Origin: Escherichia coli | Lineage (GTDB): Bacteria; Pseudomonadota; Gammaproteobacteria; Enterobacterales; Enterobacteriaceae | Assembly (NCBI RefSeq): GCF_016026235.1 | Contig: NZ_CP065613.1 | Reading direction: 5' to 3' (one strand) | DNA: 64,000 nt | Part shown: positions 9,275 to 61,137 of the stretch, piece by piece | Numbering within the stretch: position 1 is the first letter of the stretch | Layout: each line of letters starts with the position of its first letter | Translations under genes and position numbers: made by a program | The notes under the pieces: model-generated | The model's database searches: none | What the model was told of the DNA's origin: nothing | What the model saw: the letters and a program-made list of their open reading frames with translations, nothing else

Positions 9275-10567
9275 CTGAGGGATCCCCAGAAAATTTAGTA
9301 AACCATTATCATATTGGTATACCGTTGCTGTAGAACTTTCAGCCCTGCGTCAAGTGACAGTGTGTTTAGTATGAGTGGAGAATGTCGAATCACATTCTCC
9401 GCCAGTTTTAATAACGAGATGACTCGCCTGTGCTTCACTGTATTTGCCTGATATTTATGATGTATCCCTTTGTTTTCCAGGCTGAAACCGCTTAACCACA
9501 TAATGATACTGGCTAATGTTGCGATCAGACTCAATACCGTGACCCGCCCGGATGAATGACTGGCACCAAACCGTAGTCCAAATCCCCAGCGAGGATTTTT
9601 TCATCCCTGAAATTTTGCTCAATTTGCATTCTACGGCTGTATAATTTCATTACCTGTTTTGGCGAGAACTCAGTACTGTTTGTGAAAATAAACCATGGTG
9701 ATTTCCCGGCAGTACGAGCTTTAGCCGTCACCGATGGTCTGGTTGCTCTTTCCTTCGAGCGTTTAAATCTACGACCTTTAGGCTTACTTTTATAAAGATA
9801 AAAATGCCCTTCATGTTGTGCATTTTTATCTCGACCCAGCAGGCCTTCACCTAAATAAATTGCTGTCGTTGATGCTTTTGTGCCTGAGTCCGACACCTTT
9901 TCCCAGCCATTACCAACATTGTAATAATGATTGCCCAGTACCCGGCAAATATAGGTCCAGCCACGGGAGCGGAGCTGTTGGAACCATCGCCCCTGAAAAC
10001 CGGCATCTGTAATAACAATGACATCAGTCCCGGGGGAAAAGCACTCAGCAAGCGATTCCAGAAAACGCTCATGTACATCTGCATTCGCTGTCTGTGATGA
10101 TGGAACGACACAACTCATCAACGGTAAAGAACGCCCGTCACATGCCAGGCTTGCCCGCAAAAGCTGAAAACGAGAGGCATGATAAGCACTCCAGTCAATG
10201 AGTATCACAACACGAGACATTCCCCGCGTAATCTTTTGGGTAATTCGCTGAAAAATGGTGGAAACCTCATTTTGCAAATGTCGATTCCCCAACAGTCGAT
10301 CCACCCGCTTTATTTTGTTTTTAACTGATGCCGTACCGGTTAAATGACGCCCGATACTGGTAAGTGTGAGGGAAGCGCCATTTATTACAGCATTAGTTGC
10401 GTCAATCAGTGATTTTTGACGGTAAAGATGCAAAGGGGCCAGTATGTTGTTAAGGAAATTTTGGCATAATGAACGTGCAGGCATAGTGGTGATCTCCTTG
10501 AAATTGTTAGCACAATCAATTAGATCACATCTCACTATGCCTGTCTTGTTTTCTGGGGATTCCTCAG
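9275..10567 (-). mobile_element. IS10-like insertion sequence (IS4 family), about 1.29 kb, imperfect terminal inverted repeats CTGAGGGATCCCC / CTGAGGAATCCCC, flanked by direct repeat (G)GGATTGCCC
   Basis: Terminal IRs read directly; flanking duplication at 9265-9274 and 10568-10577; internal transposase with IS4-family Y-R-E-K signature. Confidence 0.88.
9295..10484 (-). CDS. IS4-family (IS10-like) DDE transposase, apparently frameshifted (N-terminal frame 9531..10484, C-terminal frame 9295..about 9579)
   Basis: ORF track 9531..10649 and 9295..9534 both transposase-like, in different frames; YSRRMQIEQNFRDEK signature; AAGGAG SD upstream of ATG at 10484. Confidence 0.8.
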
Positions 10568-13905: not shown

Positions 13906-14019
13906 GGGGGCTCTGTTGGTTCTCCCGCAACGCTACTCTGTTTACCAGGTCAGGTCCGGAAGGAAGCAGCCAAGGCAGATGACGCGTGTGCCGGGATGTA
14001 GCTGGCAGGGCCCCCACCC
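13906..14019 (+). ncRNA. ffs: 4.5S RNA (signal recognition particle RNA)
   Basis: 114 nt GGGGGCUCUGUUGG...GGCAGGGCCCCCACCC read directly; matches the E. coli 4.5S RNA as I recall it. Confidence 0.93.
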
Positions 14020-23993: not shown

Positions 23994-26900
23994 ATGACTA
24001 TGTTCCAGTATTACAAACGATCACGGCATTTTGTTTTTTCAGCATTTATTGCTTTTGTTTTTGTCTTGTTATGCCAGAACACGGCGTTTGCGCGGGCGTC
24101 ATCGAATGGTGATTTACCGACAAAAGCGGACCTGCAGGCGCAACTTGACTCACTAAATAAACAAAAAGATCTTTCTGCTCAGGACAAACTGGTGCAGCAG
24201 GATCTGACAGATACATTAGCCACCCTCGATAAAATCGATCGCGTAAAAGAAGAGACCGTTCAGCTACGGCAAAAAGTCGCTGAAGCGCCGGAAAAAATGC
24301 GCCAGGCGACCGCGGCGTTAACAGCACTTAGCGATGTCGATAACGACGAAGAAACGCGCAAAATTCTGAGCACGCTTTCGTTGCGCCAGCTGGAAACTCG
24401 CGTTGCCCAGGCGCTGGACGATTTGCAAAACGCACAAAACGATCTGGCGTCTTATAACAGCCAGCTGGTTTCGTTACAGACGCAGCCCGAACGCGTGCAA
24501 AATGCGATGTATAACGCTTCGCAGCAGCTGCAACAAATTCGCAGTCGTCTGGATGGGACTGATGTCGGCGAGACTGCCTTACGTCCCAGCCAGAAAGTGT
24601 TAATGCAGGCTCAGCAGGCGTTGCTGAATGCGGAGATTGACCAGCAACGTAAAAGCCTGGAAGGGAATACCGTCTTGCAGGATACCTTGCAAAAGCAACG
24701 TGATTACGTGACGGCGAACAGCGCCCGTCTGGAGCACCAGTTGCAGCTGTTGCAAGAAGCGGTAAACAGCAAGCGCCTGACTTTAACCGAAAAAACGGCG
24801 CAGGAAGCCGTCTCCCCGGATGAAGCCGCGCGTATTCAGGCTAATCCGCTGGTGAAGCAGGAACTGGAAATTAACCAGCAGTTGAGTCAGCGTCTGATTA
24901 CCGCGACTGAAAACGGTAATCAGTTGATGCAGCAAAACATTAAAGTCAAAAACTGGCTGGAGCGGGCGCTGCAATCGGAACGCAATATTAAAGAGCAGAT
25001 TGCCGTCTTGAAGGGCAGCCTGCTGTTATCTCGTATCCTTTACCAGCAACAACAAACGCTGCCCTCGGCGGATGAACTGGAAAACATGACCAACCGCATC
25101 GCGGATTTGCGTCTCGAACAGTTTGAAGTTAACCAGCAGCGTGATGCACTCTTCCAGAGCGATGCGTTCGTCAACAAACTGGAAGAAGGTCACACCAACG
25201 AAGTCAACAGCGAAGTTCACGATGCGTTATTGCAAGTGGTTGATATGCGTCGCAAATTGCTGGATCAACTCAACAAACAGTTGGGTAACCAGCTGATGAT
25301 GGCCATTAACCTGCAAATCAACCAGCAGCAGTTAATGAGCGTATCGAAAAACCTGAAATCCATCCTGACTCAGCAAATCTTTTGGGTGAACAGTAACCGT
25401 CCAATGGACTGGGACTGGATCAAAGCGTTCCCGCAAAGCCTGAAAGATGAATTTAAGTCGATGAAAATTACGGTGAACTGGGAAAAAGCCTGGCCCGCCG
25501 TTTTTATCGCTTTCCTCGCCGGTTTGCCGCTGCTGTTGATTGCCGGGCTGATCCACTGGCGTCTGGGCTGGCTGAAAGCGTATCAACAGAAACTGGCTTC
25601 CGCTGTGGGTTCCCTGCGTAACGACAGTCAGCTCAACACACCAAAAGCGATCCTTATCGACCTGATCCGTGCGCTGCCGGTGTGCCTGATTATTCTCGCG
25701 GTTGGCCTGATTCTGTTGACCATGCAGCTCAACATCAGCGAACTGCTATGGTCGTTCAGTAAAAAACTGGCGATTTTCTGGCTGGTGTTTGGCCTGTGCT
25801 GGAAGGTACTGGAGAAAAATGGCGTTGCCGTGCGTCACTTCGGCATGCCGGAGCAGCAGACCAGCCACTGGCGTCGGCAAATTGTCCGCATCAGTCTCGC
25901 GTTGCTGCCTATCCATTTCTGGTCTGTGGTGGCAGAACTTTCCCCGCTGCATCTGATGGATGATGTGCTGGGGCAGGCGATGATTTTCTTCAACCTGCTG
26001 CTGATTGCCTTCCTGGTATGGCCAATGTGCCGCGAAAGCTGGCGTGATAAAGAGTCGCACACCATGCGACTGGTCACCATTACCGTGCTGTCGATTATCC
26101 CGATTGCATTGATGGTGCTGACTGCCACGGGTTATTTCTACACCACGCTGCGCCTCTCCGGGCGTTGGATTGAAACCGTTTATCTGGTGATCATCTGGAA
26201 CTTGCTCTACCAGACGGTATTGCGCGGCTTAAGCGTAGCGGCGCGGCGTATCGCCTGGCGTCGTGCGCTGGCGCGTCGGCAGAATCTGGTGAAAGAGGGC
26301 GCAGAAGGTGCCGAACCGCCGGAAGAACCCACCATTGCACTGGAACAGGTTAACCAGCAGACGCTGCGTATTACCATGTTGCTGATGTTTGCGCTGTTCG
26401 GTGTCATGTTCTGGGCAATTTGGTCCGATTTGATCACCGTGTTCAGCTATCTCGACAGCATTACGCTGTGGCATTACAACGGTACTGAAGCTGGTGCTGC
26501 GGTGGTGAAAAACGTCACCATGGGTAGTCTGTTGTTTGCGATTATCGCCTCAATGGTGGCCTGGGCGTTGATTCGCAACCTGCCTGGTTTGCTGGAAGTG
26601 CTGGTGCTCTCGCGACTGAATATGCGCTAGGGCGCGTCGTATGCCATTACTACCATCCTTAACTACATCATTATTGCTGTTGGTGCGATGACGGTGTTCG
26701 GATCGCTGGGCGTCTCTTGGGATAAACTCCAGTGGCTGGCAGCAGCATTATCCGTAGGTCTTGGTTTTGGTTTACAAGAAATTTTCGGTAACTTCGTCTC
26801 CGGTTTGATCATTCTATTCGAACGTCCGGTGCGTATTGGCGATACGGTAACCATTGGTAGCTTCTCGGGGACGGTAAGTAAGATCCGTATTCGTGCGACA

Positions 26901-27356
26901 ACGATTACCGATTTCGATCGCAAAGAAGTGATCATCCCGAACAAAGCGTTTGTTACCGAGCGTCTGATCAATTGGTCGTTGACTGACACTACTACGCGTC
27001 TGGTGATCCGTCTCGGCGTGGCCTATGGCTCCGATCTGGAAAAAGTGCGTAAAGTGTTACTGAAGGCGGCGACTGAGCACCCAAGGGTGATGCACGAACC
27101 AATGCCGGAAGTCTTCTTTACGGCGTTTGGTGCCAGCACGTTGGATCATGAGCTGCGTCTGTATGTGCGTGAACTGCGTGACCGTAGCCGTACTGTCGAT
27201 GAGCTAAACCGTACTATCGATCAGCTGTGCCGTGAAAACGACATCAACATTGCCTTTAACCAGCTTGAAGTGCATTTGCACAACGAGAAGGGCGATGAAG
27301 TGACGGAAGTCAAACGCGACTACAAAGGCGACGATCCGACGCCAGCGGTAGGGTAA
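23994..27356 (+). pseudogene. mscK: mechanosensitive channel MscK (KefA) with in-frame TAG stop at 26628-26630 (codon 879); C-terminal MscS-like domain continues in the same frame to 27356
   Basis: ORF track 23994..26630 (878 aa) and 26688..27356 (222 aa) are in the same frame, separated only by the TAG; together they give about 1120 aa. Confidence 0.8.
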
Positions 27357-27414
27357 TAACGAAAGGGGGCGACATTTTGTTGCCCCGAGATTGCTAACAA
27401 AGTGCGCGTTGTTC

Positions 27415-27520
27415 ATGCCGGATGCGGCGTGACTGCCTTATCCGGCCTACGAAACCGCAAAAATTCAATATATTGCAGGAGCGGTGTAGGCCTGATAAGC
27501 GTAGCGCATCAGGCAGTTTT
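27415..27520. repeat. REP (palindromic unit) elements downstream of mscK
   Basis: GCCGGATGCGGCGTGA / GCCTGATAAGCGTAGCGCATCAGGC type imperfect palindromes. Confidence 0.7.
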
Positions 27521-27567
27521 GCGTTTGCCCGCAACCTTAGGGGACATTTAGCCACCCCATTTATTTC

Positions 27568-27729
27568 TCACTTTTCCGCCTCATCATCGCGCGTTAATTT
27601 CTTTTCATAATCGCGTTTTACAATATCCAGCGCGCGCAGCACGGTGCGGGCTGGGATCTGATTTTCTTCCAGCAGCACAATTAAATCGACGGCCAGTTTG
27701 ACATCGTCGGGGGCATTTTCCAGTGACAT
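27568..27729 (-). CDS. ybaM: small protein YbaM (DUF2496), 53 aa
   Basis: Hand-translated minus-strand [56 protein letters not shown]; below the 60 aa cutoff of the ORF track. Confidence 0.75.
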
Positions 27730-27742
27730 ACTCTCTCCATTG

Positions 27743-28270
27743 CTAGCGGGTTAAACGCGCTAACCTGTTTTCGATTTTTTCCAGCGCATGGCGACACCGC
27801 GCCAGGCGCGCTTCATAGGCTTCCACTTCACGATGCAGCGTTTGCTGTTCCACGAGATCGGTCACCCGCGCCAGGCGGGCTCTGCGTTCGGCAACCATCT
27901 CACGTAGCCGCCGCTCAAAATCCTGATGCTGAATACGTTTACGCTGCCAGCGGGCAATTTTCGGTGGCGCACTGTCCCACTCGCGCAATGACCAGGCGGA
28001 GGCTTCACGCGCGATGGCTTCCAGTTGTGCCGCCAGATGTTCCGCCAGCCAGGCCACTTGCGGCAGCTGTTGCTGCTCAACTGCATGACGAAGCGCAGCC
28101 AGATTATCGCCCGCCTCGTCGAGACAAGCCTGTAGTGTTGTCGCACGAGTCTGAAAAAGATGCCTGTCGAAACGAGCACTTAGCGTGGCGAACTGTGACA
28201 CCGGGGCACAACGCTGACGCAGCGTAGCGAGCTGTCCTTCCAGTTTTTCCAGCAGCAGGGCGGTTTTCAC
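27743..28270 (-). CDS. priC: primosomal replication protein N'' PriC
   Basis: ORF track 175 aa; recognised as E. coli PriC. Confidence 0.9.
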
Positions 28271-28339
28271 GATAAGACCTCAATGAAAATGATAATTGTT
28301 ATGCTAAAGTAGCCACTCTGTAAGCTGACAACACTCAAT

Positions 28340-29549: not shown

Positions 29550-31481
29550 ATGAGTTATCAGGTCTTAGCCCGAAAATGGCGCCCACAAACCTTTGCTGAC
29601 GTCGTCGGCCAGGAACATGTGCTGACCGCACTGGCGAACGGCTTGTCGTTAGGGCGTATTCATCATGCTTATCTTTTTTCCGGCACCCGTGGCGTCGGAA
29701 AAACCTCTATCGCCCGACTGCTGGCGAAGGGGCTAAACTGCGAAACCGGCATTACCGCGACGCCGTGCGGCGTGTGCGATAACTGTCGTGAAATCGAGCA
29801 GGGGCGCTTTGTCGATCTGATTGAAATCGACGCCGCCTCGCGCACCAAAGTTGAAGACACTCGCGACCTGCTGGATAACGTCCAGTACGCTCCGGCGCGT
29901 GGTCGTTTCAAAGTTTATCTGATCGACGAAGTGCATATGCTGTCGCGCCACAGCTTTAACGCATTGTTAAAAACCCTTGAAGAGCCGCCGGAGCACGTTA
30001 AGTTTCTGCTGGCGACGACCGATCCACAGAAATTGCCGGTGACGATTTTGTCACGCTGTCTGCAATTTCATCTCAAGGCGCTGGATGTCGAGCAAATTCG
30101 CCATCAGCTTGAGCACATCCTCAACGAAGAACATATCGCTCACGAGCCGCGGGCGTTGCAATTGCTGGCGCGCGCCGCTGAAGGCAGCCTGCGAGATGCC
30201 TTAAGTCTGACCGACCAGGCGATTGCCAGCGGTGACGGCCAGGTTTCAACCCAGGCGGTCAGTGCGATGCTGGGTACGCTTGACGACGATCAGGCGCTGT
30301 CGCTGGTTGAAGCGATGGTCGAGGCCAACGGCGAGCGCGTAATGGCGCTGATTAATGAAGCCGCTGCCCGTGGTATCGAGTGGGAAGCGTTGCTGGTGGA
30401 AATGCTCGGCCTGTTGCATCGTATTGCGATGGTACAACTTTCGCCTGCTGCACTTGGCAACGACATGGCCGCCATTGAGCTGCGGATGCGTGAACTGGCG
30501 CGCACCATACCGCCGACGGATATTCAGCTTTACTATCAGACGCTGTTGATTGGTCGCAAAGAATTACCGTATGCGCCGGACCGCCGCATGGGCGTTGAGA
30601 TGACGCTGCTGCGCGCGCTGGCGTTCCATCCACGTATGCCTCTGCCTGAGCCAGAAGTGCCACGCCAGTCCTTTGCGCCCGTCGCGCCAACGGCAGTAAT
30701 GACGCCAACCCAGGTGCCGCCGCAACCGCAATCAGCGCCGCAGCAGGCACCGACTGTACCGCTCCCGGAAACCACCAGCCAGGTGCTGGCGGCGCGCCAG
30801 CAGTTGCAGCGCGTGCAGGGAGCAACCAAAGCAAAAAAGAGTGAACCGGCAGCCGCTACCCGCGCGCGGCCGGTGAATAACGCTGCGCTGGAAAGACTGG
30901 CTTCGGTCACCGATCGCGTTCAGGCGCGTCCGGTGCCATCGGCGCTGGAAAAAGCGCCAGCCAAAAAAGAAGCGTATCGCTGGAAGGCTACCACTCCAGT
31001 GATGCAGCAAAAAGAAGTGGTCGCCACGCCGAAGGCGCTGAAAAAAGCGCTGGAACATGAAAAAACGCCGGAACTGGCGGCGAAGCTGGCGGCAGAAGCC
31101 ATTGAGCGCGACGCGTGGGCGGCACAGGTGAGTCAACTTTCGCTACCAAAACTGGTCGAACAGGTGGCCTTAAATGCCTGGAAAGAGGAGAGCGACAACG
31201 CAGTATGTCTGCATTTGCGCTCCTCTCAGCGGCATTTGAACAACCGCGGTGCACAGCAAAAACTGGCTGAAGCGTTGAGCATGTTAAAAGGTTCAACGGT
31301 TGAACTGACTATCGTTGAAGATGATAATCCCGCGGTGCGTACGCCGCTGGAGTGGCGTCAGGCGATATACGAAGAAAAACTTGCGCAGGCGCGCGAGTCC
31401 ATTATTGCGGATAATAATATTCAGACCCTGCGTCGGTTCTTCGATGCGGAGCTGGATGAAGAAAGTATCCGCCCCATTTGA
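29550..31481 (+). CDS. dnaX: DNA polymerase III subunits tau and gamma
   Basis: ORF track 643 aa; Walker A GTRGVGKTS. Confidence 0.97.
   Translation: MSYQVLARKWRPQTFADVVGQEHVLTALANGLSLGRIHHAYLFSGTRGVGKTSIARLLAKGLNCETGITATPCGVCDNCREIEQGRFVDLIEIDAASRTKVEDTRDLLDNVQYAPARGRFKVYLIDEVHMLSRHSFNALLKTLEEPPEHVKFLLATTDPQKLPVTILSRCLQFHLKALDVEQIRHQLEHILNEEHIAHEPRALQLLARAAEGSLRDALSLTDQAIASGDGQVSTQAVSAMLGTLDDDQALSLVEAMVEANGERVMALINEAAARGIEWEALLVEMLGLLHRIAMVQLSPAALGNDMAAIELRMRELARTIPPTDIQLYYQTLLIGRKELPYAPDRRMGVEMTLLRALAFHPRMPLPEPEVPRQSFAPVAPTAVMTPTQVPPQPQSAPQQAPTVPLPETTSQVLAARQQLQRVQGATKAKKSEPAAATRARPVNNAALERLASVTDRVQARPVPSALEKAPAKKEAYRWKATTPVMQQKEVVATPKALKKALEHEKTPELAAKLAAEAIERDAWAAQVSQLSLPKLVEQVALNAWKEESDNAVCLHLRSSQRHLNNRGAQQKLAEALSMLKGSTVELTIVEDDNPAVRTPLEWRQAIYEEKLAQARESIIADNNIQTLRRFFDAELDEESIRPI
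30833..30839 (+). other. dnaX: dnaX programmed -1 ribosomal frameshift heptamer A AAA AAG (yields gamma; -1 frame stops at TGA 30842-30844), followed by GC-rich stem-loop
   Basis: Slippery heptamer and downstream hairpin CCGGCAGCCGCTACCCGCGCGCGGCCGG read directly; mechanism is established for E. coli dnaX. Confidence 0.85.
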
Positions 31482-38900: not shown

Positions 38901-38985
38901 CGTAGGCCAGCTAAGGCGTTCACGCCGCATCTGGCATTTTGCTCTCAATGCCTGATGCGACGCTGGCGCGTCTTATCAGGCCTAC
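38901..38985. repeat. REP elements downstream of gsk
   Basis: GCCTGATGCGACGCTGGCGCGTCTTATCAGGCCTAC type palindromic units. Confidence 0.7.
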
Positions 38986-39016: not shown

Positions 39017-40693
39017 TTACCCCGTCACCACTTCACCCGCCGGTGGCGTTTCCAGCAGTTCCAGCATAGTACGGGCAATTTCACGCTCGCCCATCACTAC
39101 CTGATTCGCACCACGTTCGGTGATATACGCCACTTCATCGTCATAATGGGCGCGGGCAATAATCTCAATATCCGGATTTTTCGCGCGGGCAGATGCCACA
39201 ATCTCACCCGCTTCATAACCGTTGGGGATCGTCAGGATCAGCCATTTTGCACATTCCAGATGCGCCAGTTGCATAATTTCTTCGTTCGCTGCATTGCCCA
39301 ATACTGCGCGGACCCCGCGCTCTCGCAGCTCATCAACACGGGTTCGTGACGTCTCAATCACCACCAGCGGAATATCAGAGGCGAGCAATTTCTCCCCCAG
39401 CAGGCTGCCTACACGACCGTAACCCACCAATAGCGCATGGTTGCAAATATCCACTGGGATCTGCTTCTCTTCTTCGATTGCCTCTTCCAGCGTCTGCTCT
39501 TCCAGCGTTTCGGTCTTCGCCAGATATTTCTCCAGCAGCGCAAACAGGACCGGATTGAGCATAATCGACAAAATCGCACCTGCCAGTACCAGGTTCTGCC
39601 CGGCTTGCGGCAACAGATCCAGCGCCATGCCCAGTCCCGCCAGGATAAACGCGAACTCACCAATTTGCGCCAGGCTGGCGGCGATAGTTAATGCCGTACG
39701 TTGGGAGTGACCAAACAGTCGCACCAGGAAAAATGCGGCTAACGACTTACCAAACAGAATAATCGCCAGCGTCGCCAGCACTGCCAGCGGTTGCTGAATC
39801 AGAATTAACGGATCAAACAACATCCCGACGGAGACAAAAAACAGCACCGCAAACGCGTCGCGCAATGGCAGCGTATCGTGGGCGGCACGGTGACTCAGTT
39901 CAGACTCGTTCAGTACCATCCCGGCAAAGAACGCACCGAGTGCAAAGGAGACATCAAACAGCTCTACCGCACCAAAGGCAATCCCTAACGCCAGCGCCAG
40001 CACCGACAGGGTAAACAGCTCGCGAGAACCGGTTGCCGCGCTGCGTGCCATAATCCACGGCACCAGACGGCGACCTACCAGCATCATAATGGCGATAAAC
40101 GCGATCACTTTGCCGATGGTGATCCCCATATCGACTGCAAGAGTGGCAAAGCCCACATCGCCCTGTTCCATCATTCCTGCCACTGCGGGCAGCAACACCA
40201 GCGTCAGAACCATTACCAGGTCTTCCACAATCAACCAACCGATGGCGATTTGCCCACGCTGACTGTCAATTAATTGCCGTTCTTCAAGTGCGCGCAGTAA
40301 CACCACGGTACTGGCGGTGGAAAGACATAAACCGAACACGATACCGGTCATTAACGACCAGCCCAGCACGGCAGAGAGCGCCATACCCAGCAGCGTCGCC
40401 ACGGCTATCTGGGCGATCGCACCGGGAATGGCGATGGCCTTTACCGCCATCAAATCCTTCAGCGAAAAGTGCAGACCCACGCCAAACATCAACAGAATGA
40501 CGCCCAGTTCAGCCAGTTCCGGCGCAAGCTTGGTATCGGCAACAAAGCCCGGAGTGAATGGTCCTGCCAGCACACCCGCTAACAGATATCCCACCAGAGG
40601 AGAAATACGTAGTTTATTGGCCAGCATGCCGAGGATAAAGGCGAGCACAAGGCCGCCAACAATGGTGGTGATAAGCGGGGTGGCGTGATGCAT
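39017..40693 (-). CDS. ybaL: CPA2-family cation:proton antiporter YbaL (KefB-like, with TrkA-N domain)
   Basis: ORF track 558 aa; polytopic membrane domain plus C-terminal Rossmann GYGRVG. Confidence 0.92.
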   Translation of the reverse strand: MHHATPLITTIVGGLVLAFILGMLANKLRISPLVGYLLAGVLAGPFTPGFVADTKLAPELAELGVILLMFGVGLHFSLKDLMAVKAIAIPGAIAQIAVATLLGMALSAVLGWSLMTGIVFGLCLSTASTVVLLRALEERQLIDSQRGQIAIGWLIVEDLVMVLTLVLLPAVAGMMEQGDVGFATLAVDMGITIGKVIAFIAIMMLVGRRLVPWIMARSAATGSRELFTLSVLALALGIAFGAVELFDVSFALGAFFAGMVLNESELSHRAAHDTLPLRDAFAVLFFVSVGMLFDPLILIQQPLAVLATLAIILFGKSLAAFFLVRLFGHSQRTALTIAASLAQIGEFAFILAGLGMALDLLPQAGQNLVLAGAILSIMLNPVLFALLEKYLAKTETLEEQTLEEAIEEEKQIPVDICNHALLVGYGRVGSLLGEKLLASDIPLVVIETSRTRVDELRERGVRAVLGNAANEEIMQLAHLECAKWLILTIPNGYEAGEIVASARAKNPDIEIIARAHYDDEVAYITERGANQVVMGEREIARTMLELLETPPAGEVVTG

Positions 40694-40931: not shown

Positions 40932-42152
40932 TCAGTCTTTATGCCGGTTATCAGGCAGGAATATGGTCAACATCCCCAATAGTGGCAGGAAAGCACAGAT
41001 TTTATAGACTAACTCGATGCTGGTGTGATCGGCGATAAGCCCCAGAACTGCCGCTCCCAGACCTCCCATGCCAAAAGCAAAACCGAAAAAGAGTCCAGAA
41101 ACCATACCGATACGTCCTGGAAGCAGCTCCTGAGCGTAGACTAGAATGGCAGAGAATGCCGAAGCGAGGATAAATCCAATAATCACCGTTAAAACCCCCG
41201 TCCAGTGCAGGCTGGCGTAGGGTAAAATCAGCGTAAACGGCGCAACGCCGAGGATAGAGCCCCAAATCACATATTTCCGCCCAATTTTATCCCCTACAGG
41301 CCCGCCGATCACCGTACCTGCCGCAACGGCAAACAGGAAGGCAAACAGATGAAGCTGAGCATTCTGGATAGATAATCCGAATTTTTGCATCAGATAAAAG
41401 GTGTAATAGCTGCTGATGCTCGCCATATAGAAATATTTCGAGAAAATGAGGATTAACAGAATGCTGACCGCCAGTACAACTTTATTGCGCGGCAGTGGAT
41501 TGATAATCGTCGCTTTGGGTTTTCCTTTATTCATTCGGTGCTGTGCCGAGTACCAACGGCTGATTTGCGCCAACACCACGATCGCCAGCAGTGCCGCAAG
41601 CACAAACCAGGCAACGTTGCCTTTGCCATAAGGCGCGATAATCACCGCCGCCAGCAAGGGTCCCAGGGAACTGCCAAAGTTGCCGCCGACCTGAAAGATT
41701 GATTGCGCCAGGCCATGCCGCCCGCCGGACGCCATACGGGCCACGCGAGAAGATTCCGGATGAAAGACCGATGAACCGGTACCGACCAGCGCCGCCGCCA
41801 GCAGAACTGCGCCAAAACTGCCTGCCAGCGCAAGCAGCACCAGACCACTTAAGGTAAAGCACATGCCAATTGGCAACGACCACGGCATCGGATATTTATC
41901 GGTCCAGTAGCCGACCACTGGTTGCAGTAGCGAAGAGGCGAGCTGGAAGGTGAGGGTTATCATGCCAATCTGCATAAATGTCAGAGAAAATTCTGACTGA
42001 AGCAGCGGATAAATCGCCAGAATCAGCGATTGGATCATATCGTTCAGCAGATGTGAGAGGCTGATAGCACCTAAAATACCAAACGATGTTCGGGCCTTGG
42101 TCGTTGACGCAGCCGCGCCCGCCACAGGCTGGGTTTGTTCACTCATTGCCAT
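40932..42152 (-). CDS. fsr: fosmidomycin resistance MFS transporter Fsr
   Basis: ORF track 406 aa. Confidence 0.9.
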   Translation of the reverse strand: MAMSEQTQPVAGAAASTTKARTSFGILGAISLSHLLNDMIQSLILAIYPLLQSEFSLTFMQIGMITLTFQLASSLLQPVVGYWTDKYPMPWSLPIGMCFTLSGLVLLALAGSFGAVLLAAALVGTGSSVFHPESSRVARMASGGRHGLAQSIFQVGGNFGSSLGPLLAAVIIAPYGKGNVAWFVLAALLAIVVLAQISRWYSAQHRMNKGKPKATIINPLPRNKVVLAVSILLILIFSKYFYMASISSYYTFYLMQKFGLSIQNAQLHLFAFLFAVAAGTVIGGPVGDKIGRKYVIWGSILGVAPFTLILPYASLHWTGVLTVIIGFILASAFSAILVYAQELLPGRIGMVSGLFFGFAFGMGGLGAAVLGLIADHTSIELVYKICAFLPLLGMLTIFLPDNRHKD

Positions 42153-44659: not shown

Positions 44660-44743
44660 ACACCGTCGCTTAAAGTGACGGCATAATAATAAAAAAATGA
44701 AATTCCTCTTTGACGGGCCAATAGCGATATTGGCCATTTTTTT
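44660..44743 (+). ncRNA. chiX: ChiX (MicM/SroB) small RNA
   Basis: About 84 nt ACACCGUCGCUUAAAGUGACGGCAUAAUAAUAAAAAAAUGAAAUUCCUCUUUGACGGGCCAAUAGCGAUAUUGGCCAUUUUUUU in the ybaK-ybaP intergenic region, ending in a terminator hairpin plus U-tract; recognised from memory. Confidence 0.88.
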
Positions 44744-46037: not shown

Positions 46038-46275
<238 letters not shown>

Positions 46276-60302: not shown

Positions 60303-60602
<300 letters not shown>

Positions 60603-60703: not shown

Positions 60704-60787
60704 TTATTCAATAAACTGACGGATCAGTTCCAGCAGCGCGATTAGCGCCTTAAGCACGATGAGAACTTTATCGAGAAAAGTTTTCAT
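60704..60787 (-). CDS. candidate type I toxin: 27 aa hydrophobic/amphipathic peptide MKTFLDKVLIVLKALIALLELIRQFIE (DinQ/TisB-like)
   Basis: Hand-translated ORF with strong SD AAGGGAG 6 nt upstream of ATG, SD embedded in perfect palindrome CTCCCTTAAGGGAG; central ALIALLELIR segment resembles DinQ as I recall it; not in the ORF track (under 60 aa). Confidence 0.45.
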   Translation of the reverse strand: MKTFLDKVLIVLKALIALLELIRQFIE

Positions 60788-61046: not shown

Positions 61047-61137
61047 TGCTAGATGAGGACTGTTTCATTTCTGCCCGGAACCACCAAGTCTTGGGCGGAA
61101 AAAATAAAAAAACCGACTGTCATGTCGGTTTTTTTAT
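61047..61137 (+). ncRNA. candidate antitoxin sRNA (about 90 nt), divergent from the toxin ORF; its 5' end carries a 16 nt box identical to 60861-60876 and hence complementary to the minus-strand toxin leader
   Basis: Near-consensus sigma70 promoter TTGAAT (61013-18), 17 nt spacer, TATAAT (61036-41); transcript would start about 61044-61048 and end at hairpin AACCGAC-TGTCAT-GTCGGTT plus 7 T (61111-61137). Confidence 0.45.
61111..61137. terminator. bidirectional Rho-independent terminator (A-tract, hairpin, T-tract) shared by selU (minus) and the candidate sRNA (plus)
   Basis: AAAAAAACCGAC TGTCAT GTCGGTTTTTTT read directly. Confidence 0.75.

Follow-up and report, generated by a model that had tools for sequence, protein, structure and literature searches.

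The closest described counterpart of the gene analyzed here, rsmS (ybaM) in a 64-kb stretch of Escherichia coli DNA (this whole stretch is hereafter the window), is RsmS/YbaM of Pectobacterium atrosepticum (ECA1172; Monson et al. 2019, PMC6418279), and the window gene is the E. coli orthologue named in that same study. In Pectobacterium, rsmS insertions partly suppress an rsmB mutant, and strains mutated in rsmS alone are hypervirulent and produce more exoenzymes and more of the quorum signal N-(3-oxohexanoyl)-L-homoserine lactone (OHHL) (PMC6418279). The dose of rsmS matters, since its overexpression acts in the same direction as its mutation (PMC6418279). In Serratia, mutation of rsmS increases cas gene expression; rsmA shows epistasis over rsmS, whose action there depends on neither rsmB nor pigX/csrD (PMC8450108). 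For E. coli, Monson et al. (PMC6418279) cite a yeast two-hybrid match between YbaM and CsrA (Rajagopala et al. 2014), a shorter ybaM mRNA half-life in the csrA51 mutant and a halving of priC/ybaM mRNA in a csrD mutant (both Esquerre et al. 2016), and a reduced fitness of a ybaM mutant under envelope stress (Hobbs et al. 2010). The gene is also listed in a table from a Congo-red (curli) screen of the Keio collection (PMC5745457).

The rsmS frame of the window lies between mscK and priC and is convergent with mscK (23994..27356, plus strand). Three features of the locus are listed here:

27568..27729, minus strand: rsmS (ybaM) coding sequence, 53 amino acids plus a TGA stop codon; supported by its translation, Pfam, NCBIfam, RefSeq, the ratio of nonsynonymous to synonymous substitution rates (dN/dS) and an AlphaFold2 model.

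27735..27738, minus strand: Shine-Dalgarno core GGAG, read from the sequence, 5 nt before the rsmS ATG and inside the 13-nt gap between priC and rsmS.

27743..28270, minus strand: priC (primosomal replication protein N''), with a GTG start; upstream gene of the priC-rsmS operon, recognized by Pfam PF07445 (E = 2.7e-51) and NCBIfam NF007500 (335 bits).

Translation of the reverse complement of 27568..27729 gives an uninterrupted frame of 53 codons from ATG to TGA, whose ATG is separated by 13 nt from the stop codon of priC (TAG, 27743..27745). A first-pass annotation made from the sequence had reported a 53-codon minus-strand open reading frame (ORF) between mscK and priC and had called it ybaM. 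Its coordinates were right, our translation is identical to the one it quoted, and both the flanking genes and the name were borne out. In the Pfam search, the product had a single match, DUF2496 (PF10689), which it covers completely (E = 3.5e-24; 84.7 bits for a cut-off of 25; positions 1-43 of 43). A second profile, the NCBIfam equivalog NF008266 ("pleiotropic regulatory protein RsmS"), gives 94 bits for a cut-off of 76 (positions 1-45 of 46). The homologous position in K-12 MG1655 is annotated b0466 ybaM (NP_414999.1), and a 100% identical sequence is annotated rsmS (WP_000051146.1) in FDAARGOS_943, our comparison genome and the closest E. coli, approximately 99.9% identical to the window. 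Of 5426 complete E. coli genomes, 5424 have one copy of the 162-nt sequence, which is named rsmS in all 25 E. coli rows listed for it.

The family extends well beyond E. coli. Searching 1.84 billion cluster representatives, we retrieved 181 clusters at 50% identity (E <= 1e-3). Named members are found among the Enterobacterales in Citrobacter, Klebsiella, Salmonella, Brenneria, Proteus, and Arsenophonus, and also in Pseudoalteromonas, Moritella, Rheinheimera, and Marinomonas. The joint absence of a homologue and of a translation signal had been put forward beforehand as what would speak against this gene; hundreds of YbaM homologues were found, and the Shine-Dalgarno site is conserved between genera, with a purine-rich GGAG, GAGG, or AGGTGA at the same position in Citrobacter, Klebsiella, Salmonella, and Arsenophonus. 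In these four genera, the gap between priC and rsmS is likewise short (12-22 nt). Comparison of the window gene with its counterparts there by the Nei-Gojobori method gave dN/dS values of 0.05-0.26 for the pairs with estimable dS, similar to those of priC. Two findings would have argued against coding, a dN/dS near 1 and a frame broken by stops or frameshifts in the majority of related genomes; neither was observed.

Length by itself is no evidence that rsmS is a gene, because ORFs of 30-59 codons number 373 in the window and those of 50-59 codons 73, and rsmS is the only annotated gene of the latter class. It is homology, purifying selection, the conserved Shine-Dalgarno site, and the conserved gene order that lift rsmS above chance. 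The ribosome-binding region shows no structure beyond that of shuffled sequences and no CsrA-type GGA hairpin (RNA fold, z = +1.15), and the Rfam search of the whole window returned no family at the rsmS locus.

The product is an acidic protein of 6.1 kDa (isoelectric point, pI, of 4.6; grand average of hydropathy, GRAVY, of -0.46) with 13 acidic and 9 basic residues. Across 61 aligned representatives of the family, I17 is invariant, and conservation reaches at least 90% at L3, A6, L12, A13, D15, L16, L20, E21, A33, L34, D40, and K44. All 13 of these columns are present in the window protein and lie within two helices, and the last approximately eight residues are freely variable. An AlphaFold2 model built on this alignment predicts a helix-turn-helix hairpin, its helices spanning residues 8-22 and 27-52 (mean predicted local distance difference test score, pLDDT, of 92.3; predicted template modeling score, pTM, of 0.63). 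Both predicted helices are amphipathic, and the protein would consist of two antiparallel helices followed by a variable, probably disordered C-terminal tail. Neither a sequence search of the PDB (E <= 1) nor a Foldseek comparison of the model with the PDB returned a match. We also considered a type I toxin or small membrane peptide. The GRAVY, the pI, and the amphipathic helices rule out a hydrophobic transmembrane helix, and we rejected this reading since the protein is acidic and soluble. By profile scores, size, conserved residues, fold class, synteny, and selection, the window protein belongs to the RsmS/YbaM family. The frame at 27568..27729 is almost certainly rsmS (ybaM), the second gene of a priC-rsmS operon, and it is a gene already known and annotated, so that the main observation in itself holds nothing new.

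Published work regards the two genes as an operon. Polar priC insertions of Pectobacterium are complemented by rsmS alone and not by priC (PMC6418279), and papers on E. coli treat priC-ybaM as an operon (PMC5778457, PMC539235). In this reading, the promoter that drives rsmS precedes priC, and translation starts from a Shine-Dalgarno site belonging to rsmS itself. By inference, the promoter must lie in the following spacer:

28271..28339, minus strand: 69-bp intergenic region between the divergent genes priC and ybaN.

The best candidate found by eye in this spacer is TTGTCA-19 nt-TAGCAT, a putative promoter that we infer from its sequence. A consensus scan with spacers of 16-18 nt returned no minus-strand promoter upstream of priC or between priC and rsmS.

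Gene order was sampled by ten exact-protein look-ups, nine of which gave a locus. The order apt-(ybaN)-priC-rsmS-mscK is kept in Citrobacter, Klebsiella, Salmonella, and Arsenophonus, the last lacking ybaN, and priC adjoins the DUF2496 gene in every Enterobacterales genome examined. A position always directly downstream of priC holds for the Enterobacterales only. In Pseudoalteromonas (L004), a metagenome contig (L006), and Moritella (L015), the DUF2496 gene follows priC on the same strand at a distance of less than 2 kb. These three loci carry a DinG-like helicase gene upstream, and that of Moritella a UvrD-like helicase gene downstream. In two Alteromonadales-type loci, a ComFB-family gene (PF10719) directly precedes the DUF2496 gene, with a 4-nt overlap in Pseudoalteromonas. 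Marinomonas (L005) and one further locus (L016) have a DUF2496 gene but no priC in the sequence examined, 4 kb to either side.

How might RsmS act? In the mechanism that we propose, RsmS would bind the CsrA (RsmA) dimer directly and stoichiometrically. The bound protein would help CsrA to repress its target mRNAs, independently of the decoy small RNAs CsrB/RsmB; without RsmS, CsrA-dependent repression would be weaker, and too much RsmS would disturb the same balance. By analogy with the Pectobacterium and Serratia orthologues, we lean slightly toward RsmS being such a stoichiometric helper, one that improves mRNA repression by contacting CsrA/RsmA and acts without CsrB/RsmB. That the E. coli protein acts like its orthologues, and does so through direct contact with CsrA, is likewise presumed. 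For the explanation as a whole, combining gene identity, operon, and CsrA-helper action, our confidence is moderate.

Three points weigh against such a helper. First, Monson et al. state that the YbaM-CsrA two-hybrid match "has not been validated" (PMC6418279), whereas Campa et al. word the interaction as shown (PMC8450108). As this is the sole two-hybrid match, direct binding is still a matter of inference. Second, all clear rsmS phenotypes come from Pectobacterium and Serratia and none from E. coli. Third, an acidic protein on the basic RNA-binding face of CsrA would be expected to antagonize it, and the loss-of-function phenotype is the opposite. Whether RsmS contacts CsrA directly is a question that earlier work has already raised, and this window adds nothing to its answer.

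RsmS might instead alter the amount of CsrA, through protein stability, proteolysis, or translation of the csrA mRNA, and not the efficiency with which CsrA binds RNA; we consider this unlikely. It might also stand outside the Csr pathway altogether, as a partner of PriC or of the replication-restart machinery or by acting on another regulator, with the Rsm phenotypes being indirect. The neighborhood of priC and DUF2496 genes described above speaks in favor of this possibility, both their adjacency throughout the Enterobacterales genomes examined and their proximity, on one strand and near DinG-like or UvrD-like helicase genes, in the three Alteromonadales-type loci, since a linkage kept across orders often means a shared function. 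Monson et al. themselves allow for "an undiscovered pathway," and an rsmS mutation also bypasses a relA/spoT defect (PMC6418279). However, the synthetic lethality of priC and dnaA is complemented by priC alone (PMC539235), and the suppression of Rsm phenotypes by rsmS alone and not by priC (PMC6418279). The epistasis of rsmA over rsmS in Serratia (PMC8450108) and the two DUF2496 loci without a nearby priC also count against it, and an action outside the Csr pathway seems improbable to us. As the pairing is old, spanning at least the Enterobacterales and the Alteromonadales, in the latter with helicase and, at two loci, ComFB neighbors, it may nevertheless be more than co-transcription. We regard it as very unlikely that RsmS reports the status of replication restart or DNA damage to the CsrA post-transcriptional network; if true, RsmS would link chromosome maintenance with global mRNA control. 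Finally, that the frame is untranslated, being a chance ORF in the 3' untranslated region of priC or a sequence acting as RNA, draws on the abundance of window ORFs of the same length and is effectively refuted by the mostly synonymous substitutions between genera, the conserved amphipathic helices across the 181 clusters, the conserved Shine-Dalgarno site, the confident AlphaFold2 fold, and the lack of an Rfam match at the locus.

The 3' end of rsmS exists in two forms in E. coli. Two features of the window are concerned:

27538..27559, minus strand: small hairpin (GGGGUGGC...GUCCCC) that begins 9 nt past the stop codon of rsmS, from the RNA fold of 27395..27575.

27417..27514, no strand assigned: inverted pair of repetitive extragenic palindromic (REP) sequences, forming a bacterial interspersed mosaic element (BIME) with the inverted repeats I1 and I2, in the 211-bp rsmS-mscK spacer and part of the rsmS 3' untranslated region.

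The allele of the window (3' end of rsmS at 27568..27591) and of K-12 encodes 53 amino acids ending in TRDDEAEK and is followed by the 211-bp spacer (27357..27567) with the REP/BIME. The allele of O157 and CUWW06 (among loci L011-L013) encodes 54 amino acids ending in QSDEASQSE and is followed by a 38-bp spacer with one GC hairpin shared with mscK; the BIME is absent from it. The BIME-containing form is covered in 4059 of 5425 complete E. coli genomes, roughly three quarters, and a 1001-bp query including the BIME has a median of 19 matching places per E. coli genome. The QSDEASQSE tail looks ancestral because it resembles the Citrobacter and Salmonella tails. On the minus strand, the region 27395..27575 folds better than shuffled sequences (z = -3.15). 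A consensus scan returned no canonical terminator after rsmS, where REP hairpins are found instead, and the small hairpin at 27538..27559 is probably what is left of the terminator hairpin that strains without the REP insert have. The two alternative rsmS 3' ends, linked to the presence or absence of the REP/BIME, are among the few mildly new points of this analysis, all of them side observations.

The first-pass annotation had also taken the absence of rsmS from its ORF track as a sign that genes under 60 codons are systematically missed. The absence does appear to be an artefact of a 60-codon length cut-off, which would explain it. The resulting blind spot is small, with two intact RefSeq coding sequences of fewer than 60 codons in the 64 kb, rsmS and a 27-codon DinQ-like type I toxin gene; in the homologous 49 kb of K-12, ybaM is the only annotated one. 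RefSeq places this "damage-inducible type I toxin DinQ" (MKTFLDKVLIVLKALIALLELIRQFIE) at 60704..60787 on the minus strand, between ybbP and mnmH, and Rfam places a match to the AgrB antisense RNA nearby at 61049..61137 on the plus strand (53.6 bits; gathering score 40). The DinQ-like ORF is probably the "candidate toxin" to which the annotation alluded. The case offers a calibration point: a floor of 60 amino acids hides real genes, here a conserved regulator, and length alone cannot rescue them, with a single annotated gene among the 73 window ORFs of that class.

Further differences from FDAARGOS_943 were seen in the window. In mscK, codon 879 is an in-frame amber stop (TAG in place of CAG, position 26628), which splits the 1120-amino-acid channel into ORFs of 878 and 222 amino acids, and an E421K change is found at 25254. 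Since the 201 bp around the stop have no 100% match in 5426 complete E. coli genomes (best 99.5%), the stop would be either a mutation private to this strain or a sequencing error. A 1.29-kb IS4-like element, ISEc60 (approximately 9275..10563), interrupts amtB after its first 154 nt; amtB is intact in FDAARGOS_943. The latter genome has approximately 38 places matching ISEc60, one of them in mscL, so that ISEc60 seems to be active in this lineage. A single-base indel at approximately 40836, between ybaL (39017..40693) and fsr (40932..42152), affects no annotated coding sequence. Rfam also gave five matches to naRNA4 (CssrE), at 38905..38982, 46041..46219, and 60370..60548, some in tandem approximately 100 bp apart, and a match to ES036 at 60324..60366, all of which are REP-like elements that recur between genes. 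Three further Rfam matches were as expected:

13914..14010: 4.5S RNA.

30814..30878: dnaX frameshift element.

44660..44743: sroB/ChiX.

Set against known systems, the window protein is closest to RsmS/YbaM of P. atrosepticum: it is of the same size, matches the family profile over its full length, has all the near-invariant residues, and is likewise encoded directly downstream of priC. It differs in that the Rsm phenotypes were obtained in Pectobacterium and Serratia and not in E. coli. The DinQ-like peptide at 60704..60787 provides a contrast within the window, being annotated as a type I toxin, unlike the acidic RsmS. FliW (Bacillus, Campylobacter) and CesT (enteropathogenic E. coli) are larger proteins that antagonize CsrA. 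RsmS has no sequence or fold relation to either in the Pfam and PDB searches. Like them, RsmS is proposed to modulate CsrA by contact and not through decoy small RNAs, but it is a helical hairpin of 53 amino acids and looks like a helper, because CsrA-type repression drops when it is lost. In architecture, RsmS may be compared with small stand-alone helical-hairpin adaptors and regulators such as NblA (1ojh), the docking and dimerization (D/D) domain of protein kinase A, and Sda.
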